Both the position numbers and the translations under genes were made by a program. The notes under the pieces were generated by a model that saw only the letters and a list, made by a program, of their open reading frames with translations, ran no database searches and was not told the DNA's origin. Source: Candidatus Eiseniibacteriota bacterium (GTDB taxonomy: Bacteria; Eisenbacteria; RBG-16-71-46). From it: a stretch of DNA of 64,000 bases. Below are positions 19,118 to 27,813 of the stretch, piece after piece (position 1 is the stretch's first letter; each line of letters begins with the position of its first letter). The DNA lies in the NCBI GenBank assembly GCA_963707915.1, contig OY970178.1:1888001-1952000 (forward strand), written 5' to 3'.

Positions 19118-19194
19118 TGGCAGGCCTGGAGGGATTCGAACCCCCGACACCCGGTTTTGGAGACCGGTGCTCTAGCCAGCTGAGCTACAGGCCT
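19118..19194 (-). tRNA. tRNA-Trp(CCA)
   Basis: AGGCCTG acceptor stem, anticodon loop CTCCAAA, GTTCGAATC T-loop, encoded CCA end. Confidence 0.97.
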
Positions 19195-19260
19195 AAGTCG
19201 TATCCGGGCCGACTCGCGGCGGCCCCCATCGCCATCGCACGACCCACAGCCCGACGCGCG

Positions 19261-19410
19261 CTAGCGCGTCTCCTTGTGGGCGGTGTGCTTCCGGCAGGCC
19301 GGGCAGTACTTCTTCTGCTCGACCCGGTCCGGATGCAGGCGCTTGTTCTTCTTGGTGATGTAGTTGCGATGCTTGCAGTCGTTGCAGGCGAGGATGACCT
19401 GGTCTCTCAT
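19261..19410 (-). CDS. rpmG: 50S ribosomal protein L33 (Zn-binding, two CxxC)
   Basis: Manual translation [49 protein letters not shown]; too short for the ORF track. Confidence 0.97.
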
Positions 19411-19446
19411 GTCGTGTCCCGTCTCCGCTGCCGGACGATCGGCCCG

Positions 19447-20647
<1,201 letters not shown>

Positions 20648-21723: not shown

Positions 21724-21772
21724 AAAAGGCAGCCAAGTCGAGCGAACCTGAGTCCACTCTGTGGCTGCCTCT
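21724..21772 (-). terminator. Intrinsic terminator ending the putative sigma54 transcript
   Basis: AGGCAGCCA...TGGCTGCCT outer stem with inner GAGTGGAC-TCAG-GTTCGCTC stem (two G-U pairs, valid only on minus), then TTTT. Confidence 0.65.
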
Positions 21773-22034
21773 TCCCGAGAGAACAGGGGGTGACCGGGAA
21801 GAACCCCGTTGTCCTCCCGGCTTCGTTGACCGGGCGTATTTGGTTTTTTTGCAGAATGAACAGCGAACCACTACTCAACTAGACACCGACCAAGTCGAGG
21901 CTTCTCTCTCACCCCTTTCTCGTTCGGCCCCATCGTCGAGGCCAACCTGCCAACCAGGGTACGAGCCCTGCCCTGCAGCCATTACGCCGCAGGATGTTCC
22001 GGGTGATCGACTACGCTCGCTCTCCGTATCCGTG
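21724..22034 (-). ncRNA. Putative ~310-nt sigma54-dependent small RNA
   Basis: Bounded by a -24/-12 promoter and a terminator; several stems; no ORF with RBS and host-like codon usage. Confidence 0.5.
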
Positions 22035-22044
22035 CATCGTGCAT

Positions 22045-22060
22045 TGCAGGGCGCGTGCCA
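22045..22060 (-). promoter_or_regulatory. sigma54 (-24/-12) promoter
   Basis: TGGCACGCGCCCTGCA versus consensus TGGCACG-N4-TTGCW (GG-N10-GC, one mismatch). Confidence 0.8.
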
Positions 22061-22124: not shown

Positions 22125-22178
22125 CGCTCGTCGTCCCGGTCCGGCATCGGGGCCTCGGCGGACCGGCAGTTCAAGGAA

Positions 22179-22271
22179 GTGTTACGTCCAGAGGTAACAC
22201 GTTCCGCGACGCATTGTCCGCCAACTCCCATGGGCGCAACCACTTCGCGACTGTTACCCGCGAGGTGACAC
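22179..22271. promoter_or_regulatory. Two palindromic upstream activator sequences (candidate bEBP binding sites)
   Basis: GTGTTAC-N8-GTAACAC (22179-22200) and TGTTAC-N7-GTGACA (22252-22270); both contain GAGGTRACAC. Confidence 0.65.
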
Positions 22272-22301
22272 TGTTCCCCGATGGCGCGGCCCGAAACAGG
22301 A

Positions 22302-22332
22302 ATCGGGGCGGGGGATGAATCCCCGCCCCGAT
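22302..22332 (-). terminator. Hairpin terminator after the TPR-bEBP gene
   Basis: ATCGGGGCGGGG-N7-CCCCGCCCCGAT 12-bp inverted repeat 17 nt after the stop. Confidence 0.65.
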
Positions 22333-22349
22333 CTCCGCCCGCGACCCGG

Positions 22350-24774
22350 TCAGGGCAGCGTGATGCTCAGGCGCTTGAGTCTCGCGTAGAGCGTCTTGCG
22401 GCTGACGCCCAGCAATTCGGCCACGCGACTCTTGTTCCGGCCCGCCCGCTGGTAGGCGGCCATGATGGCGGCCCGCTCCTGCTCCGCGGTGTCGTGGGCC
22501 GGGCGGACTGGCGAGGACTGCAGCAGGAAGGGCAACAGCGCGCCCGCGTCCAGGCGCTCGCTGCCGACGTGGAGCGCGCCCACCCGCTTCATCACGTTCT
22601 CCAGCTCGCGGACGTTGCCCGGCCAGGGGTGCGAGAGCAGCACCGCCTCGGCGTCGGCGCTCAGTCGCGGGCCCTGGAAACCGCCGTAGAAGGCCAGGAA
22701 GTGCCGGGCCAGCGGGACGATGTCGTCCGAGCCGCTCGCGCAGCGGCGGCACGCGGATCTCGATCTCGTTCAGGCGGAACAACAGGTCGCGCCGGAACAA
22801 CCGCTCCCCCTCGCTGCCCCGCAGTTCCCGGTTGGTGGAGGCGATGATGCGCACCTCCGCCCGACGCACCCGGGTCTCGCCCAGCCGCATGTACTCGCCG
22901 CTCTCGAGGAAGCGCAGCAGGGTGACCTGCACGTCCTGCGGCAGGTCGCCGACCTCGTCCAGGCACAGCGTGCCGCCGTCGGCCGCCTCGACCAGCCCGG
23001 CCGCGTCGGCGTGCGCGCCCGTGAAGGCGCCCTTGCGGTGGCCGAAGAGCTGCGAGAGGGCCAGTTCGGCGCGCAACGCACCGCAGTTGACCGCCAGGAA
23101 CGGCCGGTCCGCCCGCGCGGAGAGCACGTGGATGGTCCGCGCGATGAGCTCCTTGCCGGTGCCGGTCTCTCCCGTGATCAGCACCGACAGGTCGGTGCCC
23201 GCCGCGCGCCGCGCCATGGCCTCGACCCGCTGCATGGCGTGGGAATAGGCGACCAGCGTGGGCGCCCGGTGCTTGCGACCCGGCGGGACCACGCGGGCGG
23301 CGGTCGCCGCGGCCCCGGCGGCGCCCAGCAGGCGCTGCAGCTCGAGATCGGTGCGTTCGAGCCACTCCTGCGCCGAGAGCTCGGCGAACAGCGCGCCGGC
23401 ACGGTAGAGGTGGTGCCGACCCTCGCGCGGTTCGCTCACCACCCGGCCCAGCTCGAACAGCGTGCGGGCCAGCTCGTAGCGCTCGCGCAGCCCGGTCAGC
23501 ATGCGCACCGTGTCGGTCCAGCCGCGCAGGGCGTCCTCGTGCCGGCCCCGGGCCCAGGCGATCGCCGCTGCCGCGCGGTGCCCCAGCGCCAGCTCGAGCC
23601 GGTCCTCGATGCGTTCCGCCAGCCGCAGGGCCCGATCGCAGGCGAGCTGCGCCTCGTCCAGCCGGCCCAGGCGGGTCAGCGCATCGGCCCGGCGCCGTTC
23701 CAGCTCGACCACCAGGTCGCCCTCGGGGGCCAGGACGGCGGCCAGCAGGCTGGCCTGGTCGTAGCGCGCCAGCGCCTCGGCGTGCCGGTCGCGGTCGGCG
23801 TCCAGCTCGCCGAGGAACTCGATCGCCAGGACCTCCTCGCGGGGCGCGCCGTGCTCCCGGGCGCGCTTCAGGGCGTCGGCGAACAGGGCCTCGGCGTCGG
23901 CGAAGCGGCGCTGCAGGCGGGCGATGTTGCCGCGCGCGATCCGCACCGTCGCCAGGCGCAGCGGGTTGGCGAGCTGCTCGTAGACCTGCTCGGCCTGGAC
24001 GTAGCACTCCTCGGCCTGCTCCCATTCCCCGCTCTTCTGGTGGACGATGCCCAGGTTGAGGAGGGCATCGGCCGTCGAGGGGAACCGGCCCAGGCGCCGG
24101 AACACGTCGAGCGCGGTGCGCAGGCAGGCCACCGCCGCGTCCCACTCGCACAGGTTCTTGAGGATCAGGCCCAGGTCGCTGCGGGCGCGGGCGGAGCGCC
24201 AGTCGTCGCCGAGGCGCCGGTACAGCCCGAGCGCCTGCTCGTAGAAGTCCCGGGCCTCGTGGAGGTCCCCCTCGCGGTACGCGATCCGGCCCAGGTGGTG
24301 GAGCGCGCGCGCCGCGAGGTCGTGATCGCCCGAGGCGTCCGCCAGGGCGAGGGCCGCGGAGGAGTCCACGCGGGCGTCGTCGAGACGGCCCAGCCGGAAG
24401 AGCGCCTCGGCGCACTGCAGGTGAATCCCGGCCCGGCCCGGGACGGCGTCGACGCCCCCCTCGGTCGCCAGCAGCTCGCGACAGTGCGCCAGCGCGCCCA
24501 GCGTGTCGCCCTGGGCCAGCCTGCACGCCACCGCCCGGCTCTCGAGCGCCACCCGGCGGGCCGGCGAGAGCGTCCGCGCTGCAGGCAGCGCGAGCAGGCG
24601 CTCGATCGTCTCCAGCGCGGGCACGGAACTGTCCGCCTGCAGGTACAGGTCGGCCAGCATCTCGAGGTCGGCCACCGCGTCCTGCGGGGTGCCCCCGACG
24701 GGCAACCCCGATCCGCAGGTCAGCGCAAGCTTCCCTTCCAGCTCGGCAATCCGATTCCGGTCATCGATCGGCAC
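22350..24774 (-). CDS. TPR-repeat sigma54-dependent enhancer-binding protein (TPR-AAA+-Fis HTH); apparent frameshift at ~22729
   Basis: ~500 aa of TPR-like repeats; GETGTGKE, GAFTGA, DEVGD, FRRDLLFRLN; second frame supplies WPGNVRELEN and NKSRVAELLGVSRKTLY. Confidence 0.92.
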
Positions 24775-24813
24775 GCCGGTACTCCGGTCAATTCGGCCCT
24801 AGCCAGCTGGGTG

Positions 24814-25170
24814 TCAGAAACGCAGGAAGATGGCCCTGAGGCCCAGCAGGAACAGTTGTACAGGGTTCGTCGCGACGCTGATGGGAGCCATCTCCTCACC
24901 CACGAGGACAGCCCCTCTCTGCGGCACCACCTGGCTCGTGCTGTTGCGAACCACGGTCAGCTTGCCGGCCTTGCCGTCTCCGGGCCCCATCGGCACATCC
25001 GGGTCACCGAGTGACGGTAGGGGATCGCCCCCGTCCGGCGAAATGACGAAGCTGCCGGAGCCGCTGTCCGCGAAGGACGTCGAGGGCGCGGCGAAGGAGA
25101 GGAAGCAGGTGGTGAGGAGACACAGCGTCAGGACGAACGCCCACGAGCGATTCATCGCGAATCGGAACAT
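24814..25170 (-). CDS. Small secreted protein/propeptide (118 aa)
   Basis: AGGAAAGG RBS; signal peptide ending near SFA|D; G/D/P-rich GGDP..GDPD core; hydrophobic C-terminal helix; 39 nt upstream of the bEBP. Confidence 0.8.
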
Positions 25171-25323
25171 GAGAACCTTTCCTGTGTCATGAAACGATGA
25201 ACCAAAGCGCCCGGCCTGCTATGACTTCTCCCGCCAGAGGGGTCGCCGTCACGGAGTGAGGTCGGGATACGGGGTGACCCCTCTCTCCGCAGACGTCGTT
25301 TGCGGGCAGCCCGGTACGGAAGG

Positions 25324-25353
25324 ATTGTAGTCCCGTTGCTCCCGGCGCGGCAA
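25324..25353 (-). promoter_or_regulatory. sigma70 promoter of the propeptide-bEBP operon
   Basis: TTGCCG-N18-TACAAT. Confidence 0.55.
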
Positions 25354-25480
25354 GGGGATGTTGCGCCCGAACGTCGGGCCCGGGGCGCCCCGGGGAGCGC
25401 CCACCGCCCGGCTCCCGGCCGGCGCCGGCACGGCGCGGCCCCGGGTAGGGAGATCCCCGGGGCCGCCGTGCGGGCCGCGA

Positions 25481-26902
25481 CTAGCGCCGCTTGAGCCTGG
25501 GCGGCTGTCCCTTCACGTCTTCGAGCACCACGCCGAATTCGTCCAGGAGCCGCTGCCGCAGGGCGTCCGCCCGGGCCCAGTCGCGGTCCTTGCGGGCCTG
25601 CTCGCGCTCCCCGGCCAGCGCCAGGACCTCGGTTGGCCAGGACTCCCCGGCGGGCTTTCTCCAGAAGAGGCCGAGCACGCCGCCCAGGCCGAGCAGGACC
25701 CGGCCCGCCGCGGGGCCCTCGGGCGAGCCCTCGTCCAGCGCCCGGTTCACCTCGCGCGACAGGTCGAACAGGTGCCCGATGGCCTTGGCGCTGTTGAAGT
25801 CGTCCTCCATCGCCTCGTGGAACGAGCCGCTCGCACTCCGCCACCGCCCGGCCCAGGTCCCCGGTCGGGGCCGTCCCGGCGGGCAGGTCCCAGGCCCGCG
25901 CCCGGGCGAGCACGCCGATCAGGCGCTGGTGGGCCACCGCGGCCTCGGCCAGGCGCTCCTCGTTGAACTCGAGCGGGCTGCGGTAGTGGGTCGAGAGCAG
26001 GTAGTAGCGCACCACCTCGGGGTCCGTGCGGCCGGCGATCTCGTCCACGTAGAACAGGCTGCCGGTCCCGGTGCTCTTCGAGATCTTGTCGCCGCCGGTC
26101 GTCACCATGCCGTTCTCGGTCCAGAAGTTCGCGAACGGCTTGCCGGTGGCGGCCTCGCTCTGGGCGATCTCGTTCTCGTGGTGCGGGAAGATCAGGTCCT
26201 GCCCGCCGCCGTGGATGTCGAGGGTCTCGCCCAGGTACTTCATGCTCATGGCCGAGCACTCGATGTGCCAGCCGGGCCGGCCGGGCCCCCAGGGGCTCTC
26301 CCAGGCCGGCTCGCCCGGCTTGGCGCCCTTCCACAGCGCGAAGTCGAGCGGGTCGCGCTTCTCCTCGCCCACGTTGGCCTTGTCGCCGGCCTTCTCGCGC
26401 TCGCTCGCGCGCACCTCGTCCAGGCTGCGGCCCGAGAGCTTCCCGTAGTCGGCCTTCGAGCGCACGTCGAAGTAGACGTCGCCGCCCGCCGCGTAGGCGT
26501 GGCCCTTCTCGATCAGGCGGCGCGATCAGTTCGAACATCTCGGCGATGTGCTGGGTGGCGCGCGGGTAGTGCGTGGCCGGCAGGATGTTGTGCAGCGCCG
26601 CGCCCTCGAGGTAGGCGGCGATGTTGCGCTCGCTGACCGAGGTGTAGTCCACGCCCTCGCTGCGTCGCCCGGTCGATGATCTTGTCGTCCACGTCGGTGA
26701 AGTTGTAGACGTAGGTCACGTCGTAACCGAGGTGCAGCAGGTAGCGGCGCATCAGGTCGCCCGAGAGCGAGGCGCGGATGTGCCCGACGTGGGGCTTGTC
26801 CTGCACCGTCATGCCGCACACGTACATGCCCACGCGGCCGGGGTGGACGGGGACGAACTCGCGCTTCTCGCGCGTCAGCGTGTCGTAGATGCGCAGCGTC
26901 AC
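25481..26902 (-). CDS. cysS: Cysteine--tRNA ligase (about 3 apparent frameshifts)
   Basis: [63 protein letters not shown] spread over different frames. Confidence 0.95.
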
Positions 26903-27813
26903 GGGTTCTCCAGGGGGATGGCGGTGGCAGCCGCCGGGCCGGGCCCGGCGGACAGCGGTCGGATGGCGATCTCGCGGTTCGTCCCGGTGCGGATGTCCCC
27001 GGCGACCAGCGCCTCGTGGGCGCGCAGCCGCAGCTCGCGCGCCACCTGGAAGGCGTCGGCCCCGGGCCGGGACCGTACCACCATGCGCAATTGGACCTCG
27101 GCGCCGGCGAGCGCCTCGACGCCCCACAACTCGGCGGGCTCGATCAGCCGCTCGCGCCAGCACCGGCTCGGCATTCAGTCCGTCCACGACCCCGCGGCAC
27201 AGCTCGAGCGCCCGCCCGAGGTCCTCGTTGGCCCCGACCGGCACGTCCACGGTGAGGCGGTTCCAGTCGCGGCTGCGGTTGGTGACCGTCTTGAACTCGC
27301 CGTTCGGCACGTAGTGGACGAAGCCGTTGAAGCCGCGCAGCCGCGTGCAGCGCAGGCGTCACCTCCTCGACCAGCGCGGGCTGGCCCGCGACCTCGACCA
27401 GCTCGCCCACGGCGAACTGGTTCTCGACCAGGATGAAGTAGCCGGCGATCAGGTCGCGCACCAGCGTCTGCGCGCCGAAGCCCAGCGCGACGCCGAGGAT
27501 GCCGGCCCCCGCCAGCAGGGGCTTCACGTCCCAGCCGAAGATCGCCAGCGCGTGGATGAACGCCCCCGCCCAGATGACCGCGGTCGCCAGGCTGCGCAGG
27601 GTCTGGGCGACGCGTCTGCGCGCGCTGCGCGCTGCCCGGCCGGTCCTGGCCCGCGCGGACCATCCAGTGCCGCAGGCGGCCCACCAGCAGCCGCGCGACC
27701 TGCTGCAGCAGGAACGCACCGCCCAGGGTCAGCGCCAGGCGGATCCCCATCTCGGCGAGCTTCTCGGACTCCGGGATGAGGTGCAGGACCAGCAGGTACG
27801 CGGGCAGGTTCAT
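26899..27813 (-). CDS. Small-conductance mechanosensitive channel family protein (frameshifted)
   Basis: LAGAGILGVALGFGAQTLVRDLIAG..ILVENQFAVGE; VPNGEF..VTNRSRDW. Confidence 0.9.

Follow-up and report, generated by a model that had tools for sequence, protein, structure and literature searches.

A small, predicted exported protein as the probable partner of a TPR-sensor sigma-54 activator in Candidatus Eisenbacteria

We have analyzed a small gene and its surroundings within a 64,000-nt stretch of DNA (the window) from a Candidatus Eisenbacteria genome. The gene (P0001; 24814..25170, minus strand) encodes a mostly disordered protein of 118 aa that is predicted to be exported. In every locus examined the small ORF is located directly upstream of the gene for a sigma-54 activator with a TPR sensor, and the small protein is therefore probably a dedicated signalling partner of that activator.

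The small gene and its protein

The original prediction placed an ORF at these positions. This is borne out; the 118-aa sequence is as it had been quoted, and the gene is real. The GC content of the three codon positions is 0.605/0.513/0.832, which is the order expected for a gene in a genome of ~70% GC, and GC3 is below that of the neighboring genes (0.945-1.0). The antisense frame that overlaps the small ORF has GC1<GC2. An ATG start codon with a ribosome-binding site of the GGAAGGG type 7-10 nt before it is found in 20/20 related loci; in the window the Shine-Dalgarno sequence is GGAAAGG (25176..25182, minus strand). The codon-position GC, together with the start codon and ribosome-binding site kept in the relatives, therefore establishes that the small ORF is a gene translated from M1.

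A word-indexed search gave 68 further homologues of 115-143 aa, nearly all of which align over their whole length, and those with a named source are all annotated as 'hypothetical protein'. Among 1.84 billion cluster representatives, a profile search picked out 148 clusters at E<=1e-3, with 35 at <=1e-10 and five at <=1e-30. The cluster lengths are almost all 103-121 aa and the matches run from end to end. The named records of the relatives are MAGs of Candidatus Eisenbacteria, and in the ESM Atlas the family comprises Eiseniibacteriota clusters only. The original prediction saw no folded domain in this protein, and none has emerged. It has no match in Pfam or NCBIfam, no Pfam family is common to more than two of 94 family members, and a profile search of the PDB gave no sequence below E=0.78.

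AlphaFold2 with a 94-sequence alignment predicts helices at residues 3-27 and 101-116 only, with low confidence elsewhere and a mean pLDDT of 65.6. The first of these lies within the predicted signal peptide (residues 1-34; 25069..25170, minus strand), which has R3 and R8 in its n-region, a hydrophobic core and the cut site SFA|D. Across the family there is a mean of 2.5 K/R before the core, the hydropathy of which is 2.5. The -1 column is Ala in 76/94 sequences and the -3 column is A, V, S, G or T in 86/94. Given the charge of the n-region, the core and the (-3,-1) columns, the N-terminus has the features of a cleavable Sec signal peptide, and cleavage is therefore predicted at A34|D35, leaving a mature protein of 84 residues. 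The signal peptide proposed originally thus agrees with the n-h-c layout and the (-3,-1) rule. A lipoprotein was considered and rejected, as LTLC has Leu (L16) at its -1 position and there is no lipobox; Cys17 is invariant among close relatives only, and is not conserved in the 94-sequence alignment A3.

The acidic stretch comprises residues 45-67, is disordered and is followed by a variable linker. It contains a single invariant motif, G55-D-P-D-V-P60 (24991..25008, minus strand; alignments A1, A2 and A3). GDPDxP is present in 202/204 family proteins. It is invariant in alignments A1 and A2, and in A3 G55 is invariant while D56, P57, D58 and P60 are each >=90% conserved. A GDPD-type motif had been proposed as the candidate active element, and its conservation among the syntenic ORFs is in keeping with this. 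The description of a repeated GDP/GDPD core does not hold up. One copy of GDPDxP (residues 55-60) is conserved, and the first GDP (49-51) is private to the window sequence. GPGDG is kept only among close relatives.

The protein ends in an Arg-rich hydrophobic helix (residues 101-118; 24817..24870, minus strand) terminating in Phi-R-F. The last 18 residues are hydrophobic and include 3-4 Arg, with a net charge of about +3.2. The C-terminal triplets across the family are LRF (71), FRF (32), LGF (12), IRF (11) and VRF (11). Distant clades end in GLR, LGLY, VQR or GIR, and the terminal Phe is not conserved there. A hydrophobic C-terminal helix had been anticipated, and a helix is indeed predicted at 101-116, but with 3-4 Arg and a net charge of about +3 it does not have the character of a membrane anchor. 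Tethering to the membrane, which had also been suggested, is doubtful at either end, given that the N-terminus resembles a cleavable signal peptide and the C-terminal helix carries these Arg residues. Two other interpretations of the tail were rejected. An amphipathic helix is not indicated, with a hydrophobic moment of 0.289 compared with 0.290 in shuffled sequences. C-terminal sorting signals (PEP-CTERM and similar) consist of a motif followed by a transmembrane helix and, at the extreme C-terminus, a basic cluster. Here GDPDxP is ~55 residues before the end and the 3-4 Arg are internal to the tail. An OMP-type or DegS-activating C-terminus has a conserved aromatic last residue and a Y-x-F or beta-signal pattern; most home-family proteins end in Phi-R-F, and Gly is absent from the beta-signal position.

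Part of the sequence conservation near the N-terminus has another origin. Codons 3-8 contain a perfect palindrome, CGATTC-N5-GAATCG (25148..25164). AAT at codon 7 and a G at the end of codon 6 are found in 20/20 loci, and CGA at codon 3 in 14/20. In the genome at large these are rare choices, with AAT at 4.6% of Asn codons and CGA at 3.7% of Arg codons. Because the palindrome and these rare codons are kept at codons 3-8, the unusual conservation of 'RFxxNR' is partly due to constraint at the nucleotide level. Only one subclade has the palindrome, and no second copy was found in the window, including the region upstream of the sigma-54 promoter described below. Four variants of its arms were seen, of which one keeps the pairing as G-U and three break it.

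The TPR-sensor activator and its probable small partners

The activator gene (22350..24774, minus strand) starts at a GTG at 24774, with GGAG at 24782-24785, 8 nt before the GTG. The gap between the stop of the small ORF (24814) and this GTG is 39 nt, and is about 40-90 nt in relatives. Pfam assigns TPR_12, TPR_1, TPR_2, TPR_MalT, Sigma54_activat, AAA_lid_14 and HTH_8 (a Fis-type HTH) domains to the activator; its N-terminus is made of TPRs and a receiver domain is absent. Intact relatives have 800-845 aa. In this assembly the gene is read in two frames, 22171..24774 and 22350..22643, and related contigs are one base shorter near 22729. The tuf (19193-20647) and cysS (25152-27310) genes are likewise each split over at least two reading frames. 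The relatives of all three genes are intact, and two of the three are essential. Because these two genes are split in addition to the activator, the interruptions are likely assembly indels of a single-contig genome.

The N-terminal sensor is predicted with high confidence. AlphaFold2 folds residues 1-500 of the activator with pLDDT 90.8 and pTM 0.83, as a superhelix of 25 helices comprising ~12 TPR-like repeats. The best Foldseek matches are the TPR domains of LGN/Pins (3sf4, 4wne and 3ro2), followed by OGT. The LGN/Pins matches have E of about 1e-11 to 1e-10, a TM-score of up to 0.72 on the target and ~20% identity. In this model the TPR domain could hold a disordered chain, and the resemblance to LGN/Pins is best regarded as generic TPR similarity.

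The order of the two genes is the same over a wide range of divergence. The small ORF is directly upstream of the TPR-sigma-54 activator in 8/8 loci of the same genus, in 12/12 from other genera of the family and in the further locus L024. It is also so placed in 18/18 loci of the same order and class that matched the profile weakly, and in 14/14 from other families of the class, which the profile mostly missed; these loci are not independent, because adjacency within one phylum is partly inherited synteny. The small ORFs of the last 14 encode a signal peptide, a G(D/S)PD motif and a W/R-rich tail, the motif being GSPDETLNPPP or GGDPD. In one family of the class GSPDETLNPPP comes directly after the predicted cut site. 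cysS was not found in the fetched stretch of 8/18 weak-hit loci (L030 begins at a contig end), so the pair is kept where its housekeeping neighbor is not seen.

The small-protein profile matches 95 of 201 sampled genomes of the phylum, including 74/86 of the home family, and the TPR domain matches 199/201. In the 12 home-family genomes without a match to the small ORF, a high-scoring orthologue of the activator is also absent, or is cut at a contig end. This co-absence is not independent evidence, because the two genes are adjacent. One genome (G019; loci L019 and L020) has two copies of the whole region of cysS, small ORF, activator and RNA. The activator is split and cysS is truncated in the second copy, which could be a duplication or a binning artefact.

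The same genome as the window encodes a second type of activator about 80 kb away (L060, G000:C1:1991967-1996193), a TPR-GAF-AAA+ protein of 1034 aa. Its gene is preceded by an ORF of its own, encoding 118 aa with a signal peptide, the sequence SGEPDVGQTP and a W/R-rich tail. Comparison of this partner with the small-protein family by hhalign gives a probability of 86.5% and E of 4.5e-6. In other genomes, loci of the second type have a small partner ORF in 11/11 cases, three with GDPD and eight with PKGDGDG(T/V)VVK. Since the second-type activators carry small partners of their own, small ORF and activator were duplicated as a unit, each type with its own motif. These paralogous pairs provide the strongest argument for a direct functional tie between the two proteins. 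A promoter of sigma-54 type is also located ~800 nt behind the L060 module, where a protein-coding gene appears to follow.

Promoters, a predicted RNA and the mRNA leader

The operon of small ORF and activator has a sigma-70-like promoter, TTGCCG-18-TACAAT (25324..25353, minus strand), which is the one site found in a consensus scan where 0.1 would be expected. Blocks of CTTGACC...CTAC(A/G)(A/C)T align across the same-genus loci. No sigma-54 promoter was found upstream of the small ORF. The only nearby sigma-54-like match, at 24801-24816, was rejected; it has two mismatches, one of them changing the GG that is conserved in the -24 element, and it is itself not conserved.

A sigma-54 promoter is located downstream of the activator gene (TGGCACGCGCCCTGCA; 22045..22060, minus strand), with one mismatch to the consensus. 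The promoter (TGGCACG-N5-TGC) is kept at the corresponding site in related loci; an rpoN gene is also present in this genome. It is followed by a predicted structured RNA of ~310 nt (21724..22033, minus strand), the ends of which are inferred; a terminator-like hairpin at 21728-21769 is followed by TTTT. The RNA matches no Rfam family. Across genera it contains nearly invariant blocks, for example AAAAAAACCAAATACGCCCGGTCAACGAAGCCGGGAG and GGGGCTCGTACCC. In the genus of the window the RNA is without a segment that in most other loci carries GCACCTCCATC. Two inverted repeats of the form TGT(T/C)AC-N7/8-GTAACA are located at 22179-22200 and 22252-22270, about 120-210 nt upstream of the sigma-54 promoter. 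Their distance is that expected for activator binding sites, which they may putatively be. The gene that follows the RNA differs between genera. In several others (L020:1016-1612; L017, L019, L022 and L023) it encodes a DUF6526 protein; in the genus of the window a tRNA-Thr/Tyr/Gly/Thr cluster and tuf are found instead.

The 5' UTR of the small ORF contains a hairpin (25248..25294, minus strand) with the loop UCACCCCGUAUCC, which includes the 8-mer CCGUAUCC at 25265-25272. The loop is ~100 nt upstream of the start codon. The 8-mer is found upstream of the ORF in loci of 17 distinct genomes. In 17/23 minimum-free-energy folds of single sequences the whole 8-mer lies within the hairpin loop, while the stem sequence varies by locus. 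RNAalifold found no consensus for the hairpin, the stems being out of register, and single folds were therefore used. Folds of the whole leader and of the start region were no more stable than shuffled sequences (z = -0.71 and 0.07).

The 5' seed of the sigma-54-driven RNA is GGAUACGG (22024-22031), and its predicted 5' end, GGAUACGG(GG), is the reverse complement of CCCCGUAUCC in the loop of the UTR hairpin. Both the seed and the loop 8-mers are present in 14 loci. Three pairs of seed and loop co-vary, namely GGAUACGGGG/CCCCGUAUCC, GGGUACGGG/CCCGUACCC and GGGCACGGGG/CCCCGUGCCC. The combination of GGGUACGGG with CCCGUACCC occurs in L025, L027, L028 and L030 and that of GGGCACGGGG with CCCCGUGCCC in L040; where a single base has changed, in L010, L018 and L042, a G-U pair is kept. 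L009 is a counter-example, with a degenerate seed and a poor match, and in the window itself there are 8 contiguous pairs only. In L031, L034 and L037-L039 the best complementary runs are at inconsistent places and may be due to chance. The pairing was judged by positional complementarity and covariation and not by duplex energy, which is uninformative because random windows score as well in DNA that is so rich in GC. Given that the predicted 5' end of the RNA is complementary to the UTR loop, with compensatory changes, these comparisons indicate an RNA feedback in which the sigma-54-driven RNA would pair with the leader of the small-ORF/activator mRNA.

A second possible element in this mRNA is a stem-loop around the stop codon of the small ORF (24805..24849, minus strand), which most of the single folds contain. 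With the register fixed, 62% of cells are paired and the covariation score is 0.255 compared with 0.191 in shuffles (2/500); it is lower when the register is slid. The stem differs between lineages. The evidence from the alignments for a stem-loop enclosing the stop codon is thus weak to moderate. Three metatranscriptome runs gave contigs of relatives only. One RNA-library contig of 3,723 nt spans the end of cysS, the small ORF and the activator of a relative that is ~90% identical; contigs of this kind cannot show a transcript.

Possible mechanisms and related systems

In the best explanation that we can offer, put forward tentatively, the small protein would be the exported (predicted) source of a candidate ligand for the TPR sensor of the activator. 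A processed signal precursor, a ligand and an anti-activator had all been suggested originally, and each of these would be a candidate role. A Sec-exported, intrinsically disordered protein of ~84 mature residues would partner an activator encoded ~40 nt downstream in the same operon. The TPR superhelix would read the ligand, with the G-D-P-D-x-P segment as the recognised core; the ligand might be a peptide that is processed and re-imported, or it might be part of the whole chain. Once activated, the regulator would then fire the sigma-54 promoter behind its own gene to make the structured RNA, and the 5' end of this RNA would pair with the loop of the UTR hairpin, closing a feedback loop on the mRNA of small ORF and activator. 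We infer the export, any processing and import, and that the TPR domain is bound; the sign of the feedback is likewise inferred. There are points against this model. The inner membrane is predicted to separate the two proteins, and the analysis identified neither a protease for processing nor an importer or a transmembrane relay. A simple contact is disfavoured, because the small protein is predicted to be exported while the activator is cytoplasmic. GDPDxP stays the same throughout a whole family of genera, unlike known peptide pheromones, which usually diversify. The conserved C-terminal helix would be superfluous in a simple propeptide. Lastly, the RNA evidence speaks for regulation of the operon and not for binding of the small protein to the activator.

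The problem of topology might be met in two other ways. The exported protein might act in the periplasm or outer membrane as an accessory or reporter of the envelope, with an indirect relay to the activator, as QseG does for QseE/GlrK. This is consistent with the signal-peptide features, and with the Phi-R-F-COOH end, which we take to resemble class II PDZ ligands or OMP-type C-termini. There is also the precedent of small exported proteins in operons of sigma-54 activators beside a sigma-54-dependent sRNA gene (glmY-glrK-qseG-glrR). Yet the cassette encodes neither a kinase nor a membrane sensor, TPRs take the place of a receiver domain as the sensor of the activator, and the small protein is without a lipobox, having L16 at -1 and a Cys that is not conserved in A3. 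The terminal Phe is also lost in more distant clades, and we regard such a role as fairly unlikely. Alternatively the precursor might bind the TPR superhelix in the cytoplasm as an anti- or co-activator and be removed by Sec export, following the logic of FlgM and ExsE, so that the activator would read export capacity. This solves the topology problem. It would also suit the paralogous partners, in all of which a disordered chain with an inner, type-specific motif lies between a signal peptide and a C-terminal helix, and superhelices like that of LGN hold long extended ligands. We know of no description of a Sec-dependent version of the FlgM/ExsE logic, however; overall this gating by export appears improbable.

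In two further explanations the small protein would not signal to the TPR domain at all. It might regulate as a nascent chain, in the manner of SecM, VemP and MifM, with a C-terminal segment that would stall the ribosome unless pulled by export, and so alter translation of the activator in cis. A signal peptide combined with conservation of the last ~18 residues, which are rich in W and R, would suit this, as would a stop codon 40-75 nt before the next gene and the possible stem-loop around it. Against it, the Shine-Dalgarno sequence of the activator is not consistently sequestered, with P(unpaired) of 0.01-0.93 across 24 loci, and there is no arrest motif of the RAPG/P type or ending in Pro. 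Moreover the invariance of GDPDxP would be left unexplained, and the downstream gene encodes a regulator and not a secretion factor. We consider stalling of this kind highly unlikely. An equally small probability attaches to a co-transcribed passenger that has an extracytoplasmic job of its own, for example as a membrane-active or surface peptide, and sends no signal to the activator. The acidic N-terminal half (net charge -1.8) and cationic hydrophobic tail (net +3.2) do recall layouts of pro-peptide and active peptide, and the predicted RNA targets the leader of the small ORF, but the tail is not amphipathic, and duplication together with each activator paralogue, with type-specific motifs, would be hard to explain.

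Returning to the ligand model, the closest comparison is with the RRNPP systems of Bacillota and phages (Rap-Phr, NprR-NprX, PlcR-PapR and AimR-AimP), in which the gene of a small Sec-exported propeptide lies right beside that of a cytoplasmic TPR regulator, and paralogous pairs have different peptide motifs. As set out in PMC10075063, the RRNPP signature has five criteria: propeptide size (10-100 aa, or 21-50 aa where validated), Sec export, receptor size (250-500 aa), TPRs and adjacency of the genes (-60 to 400 bp). The gap of 39 nt here is within the range for adjacency, and the activator has TPRs by Pfam and a superhelix by AlphaFold2. Export by Sec is likely for the small protein, judging by its n-h-c layout and (-3,-1) columns. 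On the other hand the small protein has 118 aa (103-121 aa in the family), and relatives of the activator have about 800-845 aa, both above the ranges given. The host also differs, being a diderm candidate phylum, as does the receptor, where TPRs are joined to a sigma-54 AAA+ engine and a Fis-type HTH in place of an XRE HTH. Unlike RRNPP propeptides the small protein has a motif that is internal and invariant, and a conserved C-terminal helix. Because both sizes fall outside the ranges, although adjacency and TPRs agree, the pair is not a member of RRNPP; by analogy it may work in a similar manner.

The predicted feedback resembles that of LuxO and Qrr in Vibrio, where a sigma-54 activator drives an RNA gene beside its own gene and the RNA pairs with the leader of the activator (PMC3262071). 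The present activator has a TPR superhelix as its sensor and no receiver domain, unlike LuxO, a response regulator that is phosphorylated and receives its input from membrane kinases. In contrast to Qrr, the RNA has ~310 nt and no Rfam family, and its pairing site is in the leader of the small ORF, the first gene of the operon. The glmY-glrK(qseE)-qseG-glrR(qseF) region of Enterobacteriaceae is similar in having the gene of a small exported protein in the operon of a sigma-54 activator, beside an sRNA gene. QseG differs in being a lipoprotein and in acting together with a sensor kinase; the cassette described here has no lipobox, kinase or receiver domain. For the sensor itself there are the superhelical TPRs of LGN/Pins, which have been solved with partner proteins or fragments (Inscuteable, NuMA and Frmpd). 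These partners bind as a long extended peptide in the inner groove. LGN/Pins is eukaryotic, unlike the activator sensor, with ~20% identity to it, and a generic TPR resemblance of this kind is common.

The TPR-activator family matches 199/201 sampled genomes, and the cassette is therefore probably a central regulatory device of a widespread, uncultured lineage of soil and sediment. With two genes, one promoter and one RNA it is compact, and could be rebuilt in a laboratory host. In the accessible portions of the literature on Eisenbacteria, TPR enhancer-binding proteins, Gram-negative RRNPP and Qrr/luxO feedback, neither the small-protein family nor the cassette is described. It is possible, if rather doubtful, that the diderm Candidatus Eisenbacteria have a form of peptide signalling so far known only from Bacillota, with several cognate pairs of propeptide and TPR receptor per genome, a sigma-54 engine and a Qrr-like RNA feedback on the mRNA of propeptide and receptor. 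If the small protein is the signal of the activator, the pairing would be joined to sigma-54 transcription and RNA feedback, a combination that we did not find in those portions of the literature, and the partnership of peptide and TPR receptor would extend from Gram-positives and phages to a diderm phylum.
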